Origin: Candidatus Heimdallarchaeota archaeon B3_Heim
GTDB lineage: Archaea > Asgardarchaeota > Heimdallarchaeia > Hodarchaeales > Hodarchaeaceae
Direction of reading: 5' to 3'
Length of the DNA stretch: 13,931 bases
Assembly (NCBI GenBank): GCA_003144275.1
Contig: NJBF01000064.1
Coordinates: forward strand, 1 to 13,931
Program-made: the position numbers and the translations under genes
The notes under the pieces: generated by a model
Databases searched by the model: none
What the model was told of the DNA's origin: nothing
What the model saw: the letters and a program-made list of their open reading frames with translations, nothing else
Shown: piece by piece, positions 3,628 to 10,788 of the stretch
How the letters are laid out: each line of letters begins with the position of its first letter
How positions within the stretch are numbered: position 1 is the stretch's first letter

Positions 3628-3934
3628 GATCAAATCTGCATAAATTCTTTCAAAATTGCCAAGTAAATAGCAAAACAACTGCAAAAAGGTTGAGGAAATT
3701 AGACATTGACCTGGAAATGGGAGAAAATTTATCTTATCTCAGGAATGGACGAAAATCAATTTGGTAAATCCTCTCTTCATCCACTACACATTCCCAATAG
3801 CTTAAGGTACAGATGAACTATTGGAGTAATCCAAAAGCTCTCCTCCTTCTTTTTTTGTTGTAGGTTGACCTTCCTTGAAATGGTTGTGATATAATGATAT
3901 TATTCATTTCTAATCTTGAATTAAGTGATGAATT

Positions 3935-4213
3935 TCGGAACGGATATGTTAAGTAAGATGTCAAGTATTTTATAGCTGAGAAATTAATAATTAGACTCGG
4001 ACTCAATGTTTATCCCAGAACTTCTTCTTCATCATAAGCGAATCCCTCCTGAAATCTTGAATTCTTTATAACAATTTGCCGAAAATCAGTATTGGGATAC
4101 CAAGGATTTCCATCAAATTGCTCAAGAATTAGAAGAATTTATCCATAATTTTCCCTCGGAAGAAAATTTAGATGAATTATGGTATGTTTTGATAAAAATT
4201 CTTTTCTTTGCTG
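3935..4213 (+). repeat. Diverged direct repeat, copy 1 (upstream region + 5' end of TPR gene)
   Basis: Aligns to 6508-6786 at offset 2573. Shares upstream tcggaac...atgttaagtaagatg. The coding part has 27 differences in 207 nt by manual count (~87% identity). Confidence 0.95.
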
Positions 4214-4236
4214 TATCACATCATAGATCATCCTGA
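4006..4236 (+). pseudogene. Truncated TPR-gene paralog/allele (first 69 codons) with an in-frame stop
   Basis: MFIPELLLHHKRIPPEILNSL*QFAENQYWDTKDF...ILFFA matches the N-terminus of the 6579-7715 protein. TAA at 4069-4071. Homology ends abruptly at ~4213. Confidence 0.92.
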
Positions 4237-4283
4237 TAAATCAAACTAAATTGCCCCCTATTGAAATTGAAGAAGACTGAGGA

Positions 4284-5027
4284 CTATGAGGATAATATAC
4301 TTATAACTTTTATTAATGATTGGGCGAATTCATGATTAATTGGAAATATAGATGATCCATGAGCCATTTCATAAGAAGTCTGGCAAGAGCAATTGATATG
4401 CCCTGCATATTTTATTCCATCACTTTGGAAATCACCCGCCCATTTCTCGAGATCTTTTATCATATCCACTTCGGGGACCTGGTTGAATAATAAGTAAATA
4501 TCTAAGTTGAGCCTCGGTTTTGCCCGTTTATAAAGAATTTCCAGCAATCTTTTTGAGCCATTCACTTCATAAGAATTTGGACGAAGAATTAATATTGCTT
4601 TATTCGATAAGGTGATCAAATTAACAAGGATTAGATGCCACCCAGGAGGAGAATCAAAAATAACATAATCATATTTTTCTTCAAGTATCTTGAGGTCTCT
4701 CATCAGTCGTCCTAGGAGATTAAGAAACCATTCTTGATCCGATCCCATGATTTTTTCCATAGGATCGAAAGTTTTGTTTGTGAAAATCACATCCAAGTTG
4801 GGTTTGATATCAGATACGATAACTTCAGTAAAACCCACACTTCCATTAAGATAATCGTTGAAATAAGTGTCAGGTTCACAATTAAAGATATTATAAAAAG
4901 AGGGCATACTAAAATCATTCTCTATAAGTAGTACTTCATTATCTTGTGATAAGATACTTGCCAGATTAACAGCTACTGTAGTTTTACCTGTTCCTCCCTT
5001 GTAACTATGGACGAATATCTTTTCCAT
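4284..5027 (-). CDS. MinD/ParA-family ATPase
   Basis: Deviant Walker A YKGGTGKT with the signature Lys, LLIEND and Walker B region VIFDSPPG. ATG at 5027 preferred over the GTG at 5048. Confidence 0.92.
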   Translation of the reverse strand: MEKIFVHSYKGGTGKTTVAVNLASILSQDNEVLLIENDFSMPSFYNIFNCEPDTYFNDYLNGSVGFTEVIVSDIKPNLDVIFTNKTFDPMEKIMGSDQEWFLNLLGRLMRDLKILEEKYDYVIFDSPPGWHLILVNLITLSNKAILILRPNSYEVNGSKRLLEILYKRAKPRLNLDIYLLFNQVPEVDMIKDLEKWAGDFQSDGIKYAGHINCSCQTSYEMAHGSSIFPINHEFAQSLIKVISILSS

Positions 5028-5047
5028 GATGGACCAACCTTTTGACA

Positions 5048-5581
5048 CTATTGGGCATAATAATAAATTTTACCGTGTGACTCTCTAAAATCAAGTAGAG
5101 AATCAGCCATAAATTTCTCAATATGAGTGCTTATAATCTTTTCATCTTCCCTCAAATGAGTTGCTAGATCTTCAATTGTCACTCCTGGAATCTTTTGTAC
5201 CTGTAATTCAAGTAATGCTACAGCTGTATCATTTTCTTCTTGTGAAAGGGTTTGCCGCATATTCCAGTTCTTTAAACTCCATTCTTTTCTTAATATAGTC
5301 AAAAATTCGCTTATAGCTCTCTTAATAAAATCATCCATACCGATCAACCCATACCGACTTTTAATTTGCCGACTAGAAATAATATTATGGATTTCATTAT
5401 TCAGATCTTCATCAATTTCTAGAGCGACTCCATGGTAGACTTTGTTAACACAAAATCGCAGTACATCAGCTTTGTTCTTCAGTTTGAATTTCTTTTGAAT
5501 ATTTTCAAACATTTTTGCGTCTTCTTTATCAAGGTCCACGCGAATGGGAAATTTGTGACTCTTTTCGCTATCATCCGCCAT
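5048..5581 (-). CDS. DNA-binding protein: N-terminal ribbon-helix-helix-like unit(s) plus C-terminal winged HTH
   Basis: IRVDLDKEDAKMFENIQKKFKLKNKADVLRFCV fits an RHH strand-helix-helix. A possible second unit ends in MDDFIKRAISEFL. VTIEDLATHLRED..IISTHIEKF....LL......GKIYYY fits a wHTH. Lies 20 nt upstream of the ParA ATG, so likely co-transcribed. Confidence 0.7.
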   Translation of the reverse strand: MADDSEKSHKFPIRVDLDKEDAKMFENIQKKFKLKNKADVLRFCVNKVYHGVALEIDEDLNNEIHNIISSRQIKSRYGLIGMDDFIKRAISEFLTILRKEWSLKNWNMRQTLSQEENDTAVALLELQVQKIPGVTIEDLATHLREDEKIISTHIEKFMADSLLDFRESHGKIYYYAQ

Positions 5582-5806
5582 CGATACTCACACTTACACA
5601 ACTAATTCTCATTAATGAACTAAGAAAAAAGATCCGTAAAACAATATTGGTTATTACGCATAATAAAATTAGCATCGTAAAGCTTATTAATACCATTGCA
5701 TTACAATAGTAACTATTAGAATATAATGATTAATACAATAAGAAAGATGGAAGATCTATGAGTGGTTATCATTTAGATTACCATTCACAACTCCAGAGGG
5801 CTTTCA

Positions 5807-5840
5807 TCATGGTGATGTCTCCTAAGGGGATATCACCTGA
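5807..5840 (+). other. 15-bp imperfect hairpin with a bulged T
   Basis: tca-(t)-ggtgatgtctcc / taa loop / ggggatatcacc-tga. Both non-Watson-Crick pairs are G-T wobbles on the + strand. Confidence 0.75.
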
Positions 5841-5843
5841 CCT

Positions 5844-5864
5844 AACAAAACAAACAACAGAAAA
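5844..5864 (-). terminator. U-rich tract, possible terminator for minus-strand transcripts from the mini-element
   Basis: Minus strand reads ttttctgttgtttgttttgtt, downstream of the orphan omega-RNA scaffold. Confidence 0.35.
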
Positions 5865-6005
5865 TCATAAGACTAGCACCCTTGTAGATAGTATCCTATT
5901 CGGGATAGCTAGCCGAAATGTGTAACTGAGTGGGGTTATATTATGGGACGAAACGGAAATCCTCCTATCGTCCCCTACACATTTTGCATAGATGAACGGT
6001 TTAGA

Positions 6006-6077
6006 GGAACTCATGACTAAATTTGTCAGATAACTCGTTAGAAGCGAGTTCTGGACAGGATGAGTCACACATCCGCT
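6006..6077 (-). ncRNA. Orphan omega-RNA (reRNA) 3' scaffold
   Basis: 31 nt identical to the tnpB 3' end (6047-6077 = 10714-10744). The hairpin has compensatory changes and the pseudoknot strand agtca is kept. The 5' and 3' limits are uncertain. Confidence 0.75.
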
Positions 6078-6192
6078 TCCAGAGAAAACCTATTCAAGGA
6101 TTGAATAAGTCTTCGAGGGACTCCTTGTTCCTATGGAGTTGACATTATCTCTTGATTCCTCAAATTTCAGTATCCACTGGTATTACATTCCT

Positions 6193-6228
6193 CGCCTTTG
6201 ACGGGTAACTCATCTAACGTAGTTACGA
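6193..6228 (-). pseudogene. tnpB: tnpB fragment just after RuvC-I (VTTLDELPVKG vs VTTSDGLLVKG)
   Basis: 32/36 nt identity to 10124-10159. Weaker similarity continues to ~6170 (cagtgg). Confidence 0.85.
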
Positions 6229-6507
6229 AGGAGCAACACCCAACCAGATTGTTTGGATTTAGTTCATCACCTCTATTTACTTGTATGGGAAGAAGAACCC
6301 CTTTTAAGGATGTTAGAGAGAGAGCGGTGAATATGACGAATACGACTTTGTCGGACAAATCATGCCATGGATTGGTTACTGGATTGTATGTTAAAACAGG
6401 TTTAGAACTAGGCATAATTTACACTGTGTCGGTTTTAAAATTCCGATAGGAATTTCCTGTATCCTTATACAAAGATAGAGAACCAATCAAAAATTCCGTG
6501 TTGATTA

Positions 6508-6786
6508 TCGGAACATAGATGTTAAGTAAGATGCTAAGGATTTTATAGTTGTAAGAAAAATCATTGGACTTGGAATCAATGTCTATCCCAGAACTCCTTC
6601 TTCATCATAAAAGGATACATCCAGAGATCTTGCAGTCATTACTTCAGTTTGCCGAAAATCAATACTGGGATACCAAGGATTTCCATAAAATTGCTCAAGA
6701 ACTAGAGGAATTCATACATAATCTTCCCTCGGAAGAAAATTTAGATGAATTATGGTATGTTTTGGTAAAAATCCTTTTCTTTGCAG
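6508..6786 (+). repeat. Diverged direct repeat, copy 2 (upstream region + 5' end of the intact TPR gene)
   Basis: Partner of 3935-4213. Includes a 41-nt perfect tract (6724-6764 = 4151-4191). Confidence 0.95.
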
Positions 6787-7748: not shown

Positions 7749-9287
7749 TCAATTTTCAGTTGTTTGGTACTGCACGTACAGTTTTTCTAGACGTTTGGTG
7801 TCAAGGTTCATACTTAATTCCTCCATTACCTCATAGATATAGTTTAAATCTGCTTTGTGGATAATATTCGAAAGATTCATTTGTTGTAGAATCTTCTGCG
7901 ATATGGGGCGCTTAGCTTTCCAATAGACAAAAGTATTAAGAAATTTCAAAACTATAGGATGCTGTAGTAAAGCATAGAAGAGAAAAGCTTCCTCTTTAGA
8001 TGAAGTAGGGAGGAAATAACTGGTATCATCAAGAACTACAGGCTTATTTTGAATAGGTCCAATTAATCGAAAATGAAGCTGTTTATGAAGACCTGAGACT
8101 CCGATTTTCCAATGAGTAAATGTATAAGGCCCCACACCAAATACTGAGAACGCAGGTTTCCCCTTATAGATTGAGCTTCCTCGTTTCTCTAGTAAAGGTT
8201 TATTACGATTTAAATATGTCCATGTCTTTGGAGCAAGTCCTTTGATTTTTGAGGTATCCTCACCAACGAATTTTTGAGGGACTATCAACCAGCGATGGGT
8301 AAATTTTACCTCATTATGAGCCAGATCAGTACTTTTGAGGAGTGGATAGAGATACGTATCCTCAAGATTCACCTTCTCATTTAGTCCATTAACATAAGAA
8401 TTTTCTTCATTTTTCAAAATCATTATTTTCGCGGCGTCGTGTTTTATACCAGATCTCCATGGGATAGAAAATTTTCCATGAAGGAAATTCATTTCTTGAA
8501 AAGACGACATGTCATTAACTAAGAGTTTATCAATTATACCAAGAGTGGAAGAGGGATTAGTTGAAGTTAGTGAGGAAAAGACAGGACATACGTTGGCTGT
8601 TCTCCCTGGTTTTATAGAACAGGTGAGTAAACACGCATCAACCGATGCGTTAAAATTAGTCGTAGCGTCAATACGGTTTATTGTTATAGTTGATACCGAG
8701 AGTCGATTCGTATTAACATATTTAAAGATTTTTCGTGCGACACTTACCTTACAGAGAATAGCTAATATCCCTGATGAATCACTCATTGCTTCAAGTAACT
8801 TTAAAATCATCCATTCTGAAATATCAAAATTACTCTTCCCAGTGATAGAATCTAAACCTGTAAACTTATGTATATTACTTTTTCGTGGAAGATTTTTGCC
8901 TTTAAGCAATCCTTGTTCTGATGAGGTGACCCATGGCAAATTTCCAAGTATTAAAATAGGTGCTGTTAATTTAGAAATAAATTCGTGCCAATTTTTATTA
9001 AAAAAATTCGTGTGTTCAAGAAAAACGACTTTTTCTTTCTTGAGCTTACCAATCTCCTGATTTAATTGTCTTAAATATTCGTCATTGAGGTCAAATCCAT
9101 ATATCTTTGTATCTGGAAACTTTCTAGTGGCTGCAAGAACGAAAGAACCCGTTCCGCAAGTAGGTTCAATAATTGTGGAAGGAGAGATCCCATCAGATTT
9201 TAATTTTGTGACAATAGTTTCAGCAAGAATCGTGGGGGTTTGGAAATCTCCGTACTCCTTAATGTACTTTCCCTTGTGTGAGTTCAT
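7749..9287 (-). CDS. Amino (N4-C/N6-A) DNA methyltransferase, solitary; resembles NspV-type modification methylases (family call from memory)
   Basis: GDFQTP (motif X), IEPTCGTGSF (motif I), GNLPW (motif IV), and C-terminal WRSGIKHD / LYPLLKS TRD-like motifs. ATG 9287 preferred because the 30 upstream codons lack a conserved look and overlap the element end motif. Confidence 0.85.
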   Translation of the reverse strand: MNSHKGKYIKEYGDFQTPTILAETIVTKLKSDGISPSTIIEPTCGTGSFVLAATRKFPDTKIYGFDLNDEYLRQLNQEIGKLKKEKVVFLEHTNFFNKNWHEFISKLTAPILILGNLPWVTSSEQGLLKGKNLPRKSNIHKFTGLDSITGKSNFDISEWMILKLLEAMSDSSGILAILCKVSVARKIFKYVNTNRLSVSTITINRIDATTNFNASVDACLLTCSIKPGRTANVCPVFSSLTSTNPSSTLGIIDKLLVNDMSSFQEMNFLHGKFSIPWRSGIKHDAAKIMILKNEENSYVNGLNEKVNLEDTYLYPLLKSTDLAHNEVKFTHRWLIVPQKFVGEDTSKIKGLAPKTWTYLNRNKPLLEKRGSSIYKGKPAFSVFGVGPYTFTHWKIGVSGLHKQLHFRLIGPIQNKPVVLDDTSYFLPTSSKEEAFLFYALLQHPIVLKFLNTFVYWKAKRPISQKILQQMNLSNIIHKADLNYIYEVMEELSMNLDTKRLEKLYVQYQTTEN

Positions 9288-9355
9288 AAACAGTATCACA
9301 AAGTAATTCATTAAGAATCTTCCTCGTAATAATGCTCTTGTCGAATTCCTTTCCA

Positions 9356-9377
9356 CATGATCAAATTTGTCTGACAA
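9356..9377 (+). repeat. Left end motif catg-atcaa-atttgtc-t-gacaa (TIR-like)
   Basis: 16/22 match to the reverse complement of 10758-10779. The same consensus occurs at 6012-6033 and 6348-6369. Confidence 0.75.
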
Positions 9378-9462
9378 CGATATTTATTAGTATAGGCTAG
9401 GAAGAAAAAAGGTTCATTTTCGTCACATTTGTTATTTTCACTGATCTCTCTCTGTCTCGAGC

Positions 9463-9468
9463 TTATAA
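9463..9468 (+). promoter_or_regulatory. TATA-like box (TTATAA) for tnpB
   Basis: 22-27 nt upstream of ATG 9490, consistent with a leaderless archaeal transcript. Confidence 0.45.
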
Positions 9469-9489
9469 GAGCGAGTGAGCCTTACTGGA

Positions 9490-10788
9490 ATGGGAATGCG
9501 TACCAAAAAACACTCTCACCCCCAGTTAGCTATCCGAATGCAGATGAAACCACGGCCCATTTTTACTGATTTGTGCACCTGCGCCAAAAATCTGTATAAT
9601 CGTGCCACCTATGAGGTGCGCCAGGAATTCTTTAAGACAGGGAAATGGATACAATATATTAGCCTCTATCATCGCCTCAAGCACGAACCAGTGTATCTAG
9701 CATTAAAGGACATTTCGGATAGTTATTTACCGCAACAAGTCCTCCGGCAGGTGGAACAAATCTGGCGGAGCTTTTTTAACGGACTAAAAGCATGGAAAAC
9801 CGATCCGACCAAATTTCAAGCCCGTCCCCGAGAGCCGAGGTATAAACCCAAGAATGGGCTGCACATGCTGAACTTTCCCCGTCCACAGGTCCGAATTCGG
9901 GAGAAACAGATTCTTTTTGCTCGGAATCTCATGGTGCGCGGCTTTCCCACTTTTTCACTCGGAACCCTTCCATTAACTGCAGAAACGTGTGTGGGAGCTC
10001 GATTGGTACCGTATTATGATCGATTTGTGGTAGAATTACTCTATGAAGTGCAAGTTCACCCTTTTCCCACCACTGATTCGTCTTCTCCCCGAGCTATGGG
10101 AATAGATCTTGGTCTTAACAACCTCGTAACTACGTCAGACGGGTTACTCGTCAAAGGCGGGGTAGTTAAAACTATTAATCAGTGGTATAACAAACAACTT
10201 GCTCATTATCGGTCGATTGCAGCCACTCACAATCAACAGTTCTCCACTCACCGGATTCAAAGTCTTCAGCGAGGGCGGATGAACCGTCTGCAGAATTTCT
10301 TCCATCAAACCTCTCGGAGGATTATCACTTACTGTTTACAGCACAATATCGATACATTGGTCATCGGTTACAATGCGAGGTGGAAACAGCACTGTAACTT
10401 AGGAAAACGCACCAATCAGTCTTTTGTTCAAATCCCCTTCCTTAAATTCGTTCAGATGCTCGAGTATAAAGCGAAACTTGTGGGGATGACGGTAGTGCGA
10501 GTAAACGAGGCGTATACTTCCCAACAATGTAGTCAGTGTGGTTATGTAGACAAACGTAACCGAAAATCGCGCGGGTGTTTCTGTTGTCGTAAATGTGGTC
10601 ATCACCTGAATGCTGATTATAATGCCGCCCGTAATATCCTTCAGCGGTATATTAACCGCAGCCAAGTAATCCCTACAGTCAGTTCACCTTCATCGGTGGC
10701 TCACTTGCCGGATAGCGGATGTGTGACTCATCCTGTCCAGAACTATTTGCTAAATAGTTGTCTGACAAATCAAGTCATAACTCCATAA
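9490..10788 (+). CDS. tnpB: RNA-guided endonuclease TnpB with a rearranged RuvC-II site
   Basis: Residues numbered from GTG 9475: GIDLG (D211), LVIGY (G298 at the canonical Glu position), VNEAYTS (E345), Zn finger CSQC/CRKC, and NADYNAARNI (D381). Start is ATG 9490 or 9496. Confidence 0.96.
   Translation: MGMRTKKHSHPQLAIRMQMKPRPIFTDLCTCAKNLYNRATYEVRQEFFKTGKWIQYISLYHRLKHEPVYLALKDISDSYLPQQVLRQVEQIWRSFFNGLKAWKTDPTKFQARPREPRYKPKNGLHMLNFPRPQVRIREKQILFARNLMVRGFPTFSLGTLPLTAETCVGARLVPYYDRFVVELLYEVQVHPFPTTDSSSPRAMGIDLGLNNLVTTSDGLLVKGGVVKTINQWYNKQLAHYRSIAATHNQQFSTHRIQSLQRGRMNRLQNFFHQTSRRIITYCLQHNIDTLVIGYNARWKQHCNLGKRTNQSFVQIPFLKFVQMLEYKAKLVGMTVVRVNEAYTSQQCSQCGYVDKRNRKSRGCFCCRKCGHHLNADYNAARNILQRYINRSQVIPTVSSPSSVAHLPDSGCVTHPVQNYLLNSCLTNQVITP
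10640..10784 (+). ncRNA. omega-RNA scaffold overlapping the tnpB 3' end; guide predicted from ~10780-10785 onward
   Basis: Stems: gcggt/accgc; ggatg/catcc (10717-10733); long bulged hairpin 10734-10767 with core aactattt/aaatagtt. Loop tgtgact pairs with agtcata (10773-10779) as a pseudoknot. The 5' limit is a guess. Confidence 0.8.
10758..10779 (-). repeat. Right end motif (reverse complement tatg-acttg-atttgtc-a-gacaa)
   Basis: Inverted partner of 9356-9377. Lies inside the omega-RNA scaffold. Confidence 0.75.

Follow-up and report, generated by a model that had tools for sequence, protein, structure and literature searches.

We found that the analysed window, a stretch of 13,931 nucleotides, carries on its minus strand a 358-bp, protein-less, MITE-like element at positions 6012-6369. 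This element ends in an omega-RNA-like module, and it belongs to a mobile family that shares its ends with 1.42-kb elements carrying only tnpB. A pattern scan with both end motifs placed the left end of the element at 6369 and the right end at 6012. Taken alone, the identification of 6012-6369 as a MITE with an intact scaffold is, in our judgment, close to certain. The best explanation of the whole chain, which we consider probable, is a MITE copy of a 1.42-kb tnpB-only insertion sequence with a trans-acting guide RNA in an Asgard host of the Hodarchaeales type. For the trans-guide function of the 6012-6369 RNA itself, the present analysis puts the chances at about even.

The ends of the element are 22-bp inverted repeats, CATGATCAAATTTGTCnGACAA and TTGTCnGACAAATnTAGTCATG. 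On the minus strand, the left repeat (CATGGCATGATTTGTCCGACAA, 6348-6369) deviates at its positions 5-10 from the family consensus ATCA(A/T)(A/T), and the right repeat (TTATCTGACAAATTTAGTCATG, 6012-6033) finishes with the element terminus CATG. The family alignment and the sequence place a TATA-box-like motif, CCTTAAAAGG, at 6300-6309 (minus strand), which is a putative archaeal promoter. Most MITEs keep this motif as CTTAAAAGG or CATAAAAAG, and the full-length copies have CTTATAAGAG, which lies about 25 nt upstream of the tnpB ATG in the full-length element. In addition, a block at 6190-6226 (minus strand) goes back to the stretch of tnpB that encodes RuvC-I (nhmmer E = 7e-12 to full-length positions 750-819). 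The block folds into a bulged hairpin of 9 bp, GTAACTACGT..ACGAGTTAC, and is retained in all MITE copies, with a conservation second only to that of the 3′ module. Substitutions in this hairpin across the MITEs fall in the loop or the bulge or lead to G.U pairs, except in the more degenerate copies.

The first-pass annotation had confined the homology with the neighbouring tnpB element to 6006-6077 and had taken the locus for an orphan left by a deletion of that element. Two colinear matches were missed there, one between 6315-6346 and the left end of the intact element (9422-9453), and the other between 6180-6228 and the GIDLG...LVTTSDG (RuvC-I) coding part of tnpB (10124-10172). The RNA module also reaches 6127. 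The supposed orphan is instead a complete mobile MITE, colinear with 21 other copies in its own genome.

When the intact element was used as a query against its own 3.95-Mb assembly (G000), there were 48 matches, most of them spanning just the last 70-120 nt. With a 501-nt query around the gene-less locus, more than 20 contigs showed colinear matches some 350 nt long. This genome contains at least 22 complete mini-elements, 37 right-end RNA modules recognised by our covariance model R1, and six tnpB genes, and the gene-less elements outnumber the tnpB genes about five to one. The right termini of all copies read ...TTGTCTGACAAATnTAGTCAT(G) with divergence immediately beyond, and the left ends, CATGATCA(A/T)(A/T)TTTGTCnGACAA, are the inverted complement of the right end. 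Pairing of the end motifs gave size classes of 33 bp (n = 3), 146 bp (n = 1), 358-367 bp (n = 19; three more copies with degenerate ends complete the 22 mini-elements) and 1411-1424 bp (n = 4), the last comprising tnpB elements, including the one at 9356-10779 of the window. The 33-bp solo palindromes (C8:64499-64531, C35:1462-1494 and C50:11147-11179 of G000) consist of left and right repeats fused at a palindromic core, TTGTCnGACAA, and could be deletion products or minimal elements.

In a nhmmer profile alignment, positions 1-71, about 118-199 and 242-361 of the mini-element corresponded to positions 1-115, about 722-825 and about 1284-1424 of the full-length element, respectively. This shared three-piece alignment shows that the family arose once by internal deletions and then multiplied. 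Of the full element, the MITE keeps the left end with the putative TATA-like promoter, some 80 nt from the region encoding RuvC-I, and the final 120 nt or so, which hold the omega-RNA scaffold. The effector gene is absent from 6012-6369, where the remnant of the tnpB frame is open for only 66 codons and no ORF of Pfam scale is present. We also considered a coding mini-gene and rejected it: one subfamily is open for 105-121 codons, and the most recently active subfamily stops after 10. Since the frame is lost in other subfamilies, coding is not a feature of the family. The frame of 105-121 codons joins the RuvC-I fragment to the tail of TnpB, and it was seen in G000 on C23, C54, C86 (two copies) and C41 and at C88:41020 and C8:18882.

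Four sister genomes had 41, 20, 11, and 6 R1 copies and three more had one copy each, so that 8 of the 22 genomes of the genus were positive; there were no R1 matches in the 59 other genomes of the class that were searched. The host genome also encodes Ras-family GTPases, TFIIB, and CDC48 paralogues.

Orthologous sites provided the evidence for mobility. The mini-element at G000:C86:22165-22527 is absent at the orthologous site of the sister genome G013 (C150), which reads GGAGC-CATG-GCTTG (...GGAGC CATG GCTTGAGG...). The occupied site carries CATG at both element ends, whereas the empty site has a single CATG. Two further G013 sites agree, with CATA and CATC. Furthermore, several copies are nearly identical (for example, those at C67:3690 and C67:12462), which indicates that the family moved recently. 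Insertion of the elements into a pre-existing 33-bp palindrome was rejected because the clean empty site in G013 has CATG alone. The mini-element at G000:C82:112033-112394 was rejected as an empty-site case, its flanks lying on different contigs in G013 and G003. At this place G013 runs on colinearly with G003 past the site; the split flanks and this colinearity together show that the C82 MITE marks a synteny break in G000.

For the site of 6012-6369, the flanks lie about 94 bp apart in G018, without CATG, at an identity of about 75% that leaves the junction ambiguous, and an empty site for this copy was not found. In G013, the whole 3750-6431 segment that holds the element is missing from the syntenic region. 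This 2.7-kb segment comprises a ParA-like ATPase gene (4284-5048), an ORF of 177 aa, and the MITE, and it overlaps a 300-bp direct repeat (3912-4211 and 6485-6784, 83% identity) that duplicates the start of a TPR gene. An intergenic element of about 65 nt at 5916-5982 has nested stems (ATGTGTA..TACACAT and GGGACGA..TCGTCCC), gave no Rfam match, is kept with compensatory changes in G018 and G003, and is partially repeated at 3766-3805.

The intact tnpB-only element (9356-10779, plus strand, 1424 bp) has the same inverted ends, but its right end is CATA, not CATG. Should crossover or cleavage depend on CATG, the CATA at 10776-10779 may have left this element immobile. Its tnpB ORF (9490-10788, plus strand) encodes 432 aa from the first ATG and matches the Pfam families OrfB_IS605 (2e-18) and Cas12f1-like_TNB (3.4e-24). 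The protein contains GIDLG (RuvC-I), NEAYTSQQCSQC, a zinc finger, and NADYNAARN. The canonical RuvC-II place (LVIGYN) is without a glutamate, and a glutamate is found six residues before the first CxxC, within NEAYTSQQCSQC. Yoon et al. described such an arrangement, Ealt, for Fanzors and a related TnpB clade (PMC10711439); judging from its motifs, this TnpB of an Asgard archaeon has the Ealt arrangement. The left end of the element (9356-9377) abuts the 5′ end of a divergent N6-methyltransferase ORF (7749-9377), and the called TTG start of that ORF falls within the inverted repeat.

Five of the six tnpB ORFs of the family in the genome are full-length (417-432 aa), and one is cut by a contig end. 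The nearest relatives of the protein (70-93% identity) come from MAGs of Candidatus Heimdallarchaeota and Hodarchaeota, and the next ones have an identity of about 35%. Its relatives in PDB include ISDra2 TnpB (8bf8, E = 3.4e-8). In one bacterial relative with 35% identity (L047), which is among the nearest outside the Asgard archaea, the protein encoded upstream consists of an N-terminal extension followed by a resolvase domain, which suggests that this TnpB clade borders on IS607. A second tnpB family is present in G000 (C38:57987-59267 and five paralogues; 426 aa, with HTH_OrfB_IS605).

The omega-RNA-like 3′ module of the MITE (6012-6127, minus strand, 116 nt) scored 105.7 bits with R1 (E = 4.7e-23). 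Its parts are, in order, the CAAGGAGTCCC motif, variable hairpin 1, a GGATG/CATCC hairpin, a long stem, variable hairpin 2, and the AGTCATG end. The corresponding module of the intact element (10663-10779, plus strand) scored 116.9 bits and lies wholly within the tnpB reading frame. We aligned 43 distinct modules, taken from MITEs and full-length elements of the own genome, three sister genomes, and public Asgard MAGs. An invariant CAAGTAGTCCC motif, hairpin 1, the GGATG/CATCC hairpin, the long stem (UGUC-CAG paired with UCUGACA), and hairpin 2 are common to all of them, and the module terminates at the element boundary in all copies. In the E-value mode, an Rfam search of the whole window gave no family match at the locus.

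The alignment supports a conserved fold. In the 43 sequences, 90.9% of the cells were paired against 83.1% after shuffling, and the covariation score was 0.235 against 0.106 (none of 500 shuffles reached 0.235), with values of at most 0.108 when the partners were slid. Changes on both sides were found for 16 pairs of the structure. The variable hairpin 1 (GAAGACTTATTCA..TGAATAGGTTTTC, 6084-6114, minus strand) contributed such changes at all nine pairs of helix 1, and here the 6012-6369 copy has T-A in place of the A-T of its own subfamily. In the GGATG/CATCC hairpin (6058-6074, minus strand), helix 2 was 96.3% paired in the family alignment. Its loop, UGACU, can pair with AGUCA at 6014-6018, forming a candidate pseudoknot helix that was 99.5% paired; helix 2 and the pseudoknot vary solely to G.U, plus one A.C. 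In the variable hairpin 2 (AACTCG CTTCTAA CGAGTT, 6032-6050, minus strand), pairs 92/102 (AU 17, CG 17, UA 3, UG 1) and 93/101 (UA 30, AU 3, GC 3, GU 2) covary. The 116-nt module folds at −36.7 kcal/mol (z = −3.5; none of 200 shuffles was as stable), although its MFE fold favours an alternative helix, UCUGGA/UCCAGA, over part of the consensus long stem.

Pairs 92/102 and 93/101 bear on the compensatory changes reported by the first-pass annotation. The repeat it described is real (6013-6077 on the minus strand against 10714-10778; 65 nt, 86% match), as are the 31-nt exact run (AGCGGATGTGTGACTCATCCTGTCCAGAACT, 6077 to 6047 against 10714-10744) and the replacement of A-T by C-G and of T-A by G-C between AACTATT/AATAGTT of the intact copy and AACTCG/CGAGTT of the MITE. 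The full hairpins are AACTATT-TGCTA-AATAGTT and AACTCG-CTTCTAA-CGAGTT, respectively, so the apical pair is gone in the MITE, where it is now C.A. The family alignment confirms the hairpin as a covarying structural element. However, the changes were not made at this locus: C-G at the first pair is found in 17 of the 43 family members. The covariation is older than the 6012-6369 copy and came from a sister lineage, as the caveat attached to that annotation had allowed. The stem differences from the neighbouring tnpB element are an old, inherited lineage polymorphism of a constrained hairpin, not a local adaptation. Similarly, the ends do differ as stated (AGTCATA in the intact copy, AGTCATG in the MITE), but G is the family consensus and the A of the intact neighbour is the deviant. 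Helices 2 and 4 and the pseudoknot of 6012-6127 are the same as those of this neighbour. None of the full-length tnpB elements in the genome has the variable-hairpin subfamily of the 6012-6369 copy; thus, that it suits the resident TnpBs is an assumption drawn from the identity of the core helices.

Homology among 38 aligned copies ends directly after GTCAT(G). Thus, the guide is predicted to start at 6011 in the MITE, six bases before the start given in the first-pass annotation, and at 10780 in the intact copy. The predicted guide, AGTTCCTCTAAACCGTTCAT (5992-6011, minus strand), is the flank directly 3′ of the right end. The picture of a gene-less locus with a full omega-RNA-like scaffold adjoining the right end, and with its own flank in the place of the guide, holds. 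When 35 guides were compared with the 20,435 CATG-adjacent 16-mers of the genome, none except the own flanks had fewer than 3 mismatches; for the guide at 5992-6011, every other CATG-adjacent site of the genome had at least 4 mismatches over 16 nt. That no guide has another plausible target next to a CATG is in line with homing rather than with action elsewhere in the genome. Targeting of start codons found no support either: an ORF of 80 codons or more begins at the ATG of the terminal CATG in 6 of 31 cases on the right and 4 of 32 on the left, which is no enrichment over a background of 13%.

The base before the left CATG is A in 17, C in 12, G in 2, and T in 1 of 32 elements of G000 (for example, at 6370 and 9355 of the window). 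T precedes 37% of all genomic CATG, and its depletion at the left ends is significant (P = 8e-6). No bias was seen at the base that follows the right CATG; together with the bias on the left, this indicates an asymmetric preference for the target flank. Meanwhile, the right ends read TCATG in nearly all copies. These frequencies suggest that the TAM may be (A/C)CATG and that the T at −1 may shield an occupied site against cutting by the guide of the same element. Cutting of the element's own right-end CATG would be avoided only if the −1 base matters.

No transposase matching the element ends was found in the own genome or in the sister genomes. G000, an assembly of 94% completeness, gave no match to the Y1 (HUH) TnpA (PF01797), which is present in just 2 of the 22 genomes of the genus. 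For the IS607-type TnpA, NF033518 gave in G000 only a 29-bit match to an ordinary resolvase with a C-terminal HTH_7; this C-terminal-HTH protein is the sole resolvase of the genome and adjoins a reverse transcriptase. Cas1 was not found in G000. End-motif pairing in G000 detected no larger element with the same ends within 6 kb. Two multi-copy DDE_Tnp_1 IS families of G000 were tried as helpers and rejected for their unrelated ends, and the IS607 tnpA of sister genomes (G013, G012, and G016) was rejected because its elements are without TTTGTCnGACAA ends. The DDE_Tnp_1 families are represented by C32:60483-61661 and C54:5887-7143, with seven and three copies, respectively.

On these grounds, we propose the following mechanism. 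The element would be transcribed from the left-end promoter across the right end into the flank, and one of the six TnpB paralogues would bind the scaffold in trans. With the 3′ flank (AGTTCC...) as its guide, TnpB would then be led to the vacated site, 5′-(A/C)CATG plus flank, that is, to (A/C)CATG followed by AGTTCCTCTAAACCGT, and the T before the CATG of the right end would keep the occupied site uncut. After excision, break-induced copying would restore the gene-less element, as has been proposed for PATE-borne and standalone omega-RNAs. The circular junction of the excised element is expected to read ...TAGTCATGATCAAAT....

It is possible, though we think it unlikely, that 6012-6369 is an inert relic, in which case the fold would reflect recent descent of a dead MITE insertion from a constrained master copy, and the RNA would be idle if made. 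The copy forms a singleton lineage: its closest relatives, in G000 and G013, share 75-79% identity with it, and the sister genomes searched contained none closer. Positions 5-10 of the left repeat and the half with the putative promoter have diverged strongly, hairpin 2 has lost its apical pair, and a transposase was not found. As the left half is only 50-63% identical to its nearest relatives, the promoter of this copy may be dead. It may also be that only master copies, and not 6012-6369, were under the constraint that the family shows. However, the copy has diverged very unevenly: identity to the relatives is 81-86% in the 3′ module and the RuvC-I block, against 50-63% elsewhere, and the RuvC-I block by itself reaches 86.5% identity to the nearest copies, against 50-63% in the adjoining segments. 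Furthermore, 31 of the 32 model pairs form in 6012-6127, three changes relative to the own subfamily fall on both sides of a pair, and the R1 score of the module is within the range of the tnpB-linked modules (91.6-130.9 bits).

Another explanation, which we regard as improbable, is that the right-end hairpins are DNA structures recognised by the recombinase of the family, not parts of a guide RNA. The outermost 22 bp are inverted, and abutting the ends would place CATG within a nearly palindromic site of the crossover type. The transposase of IS200/IS605 has subterminal DNA hairpins as its substrate (PMC4810608). In the family alignment, G.U exceeded A.C by 57 to 21 overall and by 31 to 3 in hairpin 1; this excess points to a fold of the sense strand, but such strand specificity cannot separate RNA from single-stranded DNA. 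On the other side, about 116 nt with five helices and a pairing of a loop with the 3′ end go far beyond what end recognition needs, and the module sits exactly where a TnpB omega-RNA does according to PMC10691335, from the 3′ end of tnpB into the right end. In addition, the Y1 transposase, which acts on single-stranded DNA, is absent from G000, and the symmetrical ends argue for a double-strand mechanism.

A bolder version of the guide-RNA reading would have the Fanzor-like TnpB and its RNAs spread the elements alone, by cutting at (A/C)CATG and copying, with the −1 base distinguishing self from non-self and the RuvC-I hairpin serving as a new functional RNA or DNA domain; we hold this to be very improbable. 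Finally, the version of the first-pass annotation, a deletion derivative of the neighbour that was compensated in place and became a dedicated second guide for that TnpB, could appeal to the distance of 3.3 kb, the inverted orientation, and the core identical over 31 nt, but it is hardly credible, since the MITE belongs to a different, old subfamily with the common C-G pair, both of its internal deletions are shared with the 21 other copies, its whole segment is non-syntenic with G013, and, given 6 tnpB genes and 31 gene-less modules spread over 3.95 Mb, chance alone would put about 0.4 such modules within 4 kb of a tnpB gene. Nothing points to the neighbouring TnpB in particular as the partner of the MITE. 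The formula of one nuclease with two guides also understates the system, which would comprise about six nucleases and about 30 extra guides.

Omega-RNA-only elements are already known, and 6012-6369 is an ordinary member of this class, apart from some peculiarities. Omega-RNAs that stand alone, are mobilised and function in trans have been described (Altae-Tran et al. 2021, summarised in PMC10691335), and the omega-RNAs frequently encoded by PATEs depend on TnpB supplied by other elements (Meers et al. 2023, 10.1101/2023.03.14.532601), so the trans-acting premise of the earlier annotation is stated in the literature. Like these, the 6012-6369 element is an effector-less mobilised element that shares the genome with effector-bearing copies, and its family keeps the transposon ends and the scaffold and has an own flank per copy as guide. 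It has no effector gene, its scaffold is homologous to those linked to tnpB, and it is bounded by the ends of a mobilised family; the conserved structure at the 3′ end of tnpB and at the right end, with the guide in the flank, is that of the TnpB omega-RNA class. Trans use has been proposed or shown for the known standalone omega-RNAs and PATEs. PATEs have asymmetric subterminal hairpins, whereas our elements have 22-bp terminal inverted repeats with CATG at both ends and one CATG in the empty site. As regards the IS200/IS605 PATEs, neither asymmetric ends nor a Y1 TnpA in the genome was observed. The Asgard host, the extra RuvC-I hairpin block, and the helper transposase not being found are further differences from the known PATEs and standalone omega-RNAs.

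Meanwhile, the family shows some affinity with IS607. The alternative RuvC-II glutamate (ExxxxxxCxxC) is shared with IS607-linked TnpBs and Fanzors (clade according to Yoon et al., PMC10711439). IS607-family tnpB elements with a right-end RNA include ISXfa1 (PMC10711439), and the mechanism is treated in PMC4058570 and PMC6188088. As in IS607, either junction carries the same short motif, of which the empty site has one copy; a crossover at a matching motif predicts this. However, IS607 elements are described in PMC6188088 as being without terminal inverted repeats, which our family has; the motif is CATG, not GG, and the serine-recombinase TnpA of IS607 was not found in G000.

Like the omega-RNA of ISDra2 (8exa/8bf8; PMC10097598), the present module overlaps the 3′ end of tnpB and the right end, has the flank as its guide, combines several stems with a pseudoknot-type pairing beside the guide, and is linked to a homologous protein. 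The RNA sequences are dissimilar, with no Rfam match, and the catalytic glutamate is elsewhere. In addition, ISDra2 is a Y1 transposon with a TTGAT TAM, whereas our family has inverted ends and CATG. The place of the RNA also resembles that of the sotRNAs of archaeal IS1341-type tnpB (PMC4615843), which overlap the 3′ end of tnpB in sense orientation. The sequences are unrelated, and the sotRNAs were shown by RNA-seq in Halobacterium, whereas the RNA here is predicted.

Classical prokaryotic MITEs share with our family the length of about 360 bp, the terminal inverted repeats, the non-coding nature, and the high copy number; the CATG on either side could also be taken for a duplication of 4 bp. 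However, the source is a tnpB-only element and not a DDE transposon, the target flank preference is asymmetric, and a conserved structured RNA module fills most of the length. No repeats shared with an autonomous DDE transposon of the genome were found.

For genome annotation, the isolated 'omega-RNA fossils' in these genomes can be read as MITE copies. The practical yield is a compact, covariation-defined scaffold of 116 nt, a TAM prediction of (A/C)CATG in which T at −1 would shield the donor, and natural scaffold variants for a TnpB with a Fanzor-type rearranged active site. As for the biology of the family, the putative guide-RNA genes of this TnpB are mostly carried by protein-less mini-transposons and do not lie beside the nuclease gene. 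The family would thus illustrate in nature, in an archaeon closely related to eukaryotes, the trans-guide economy that has been proposed for OMEGA systems.
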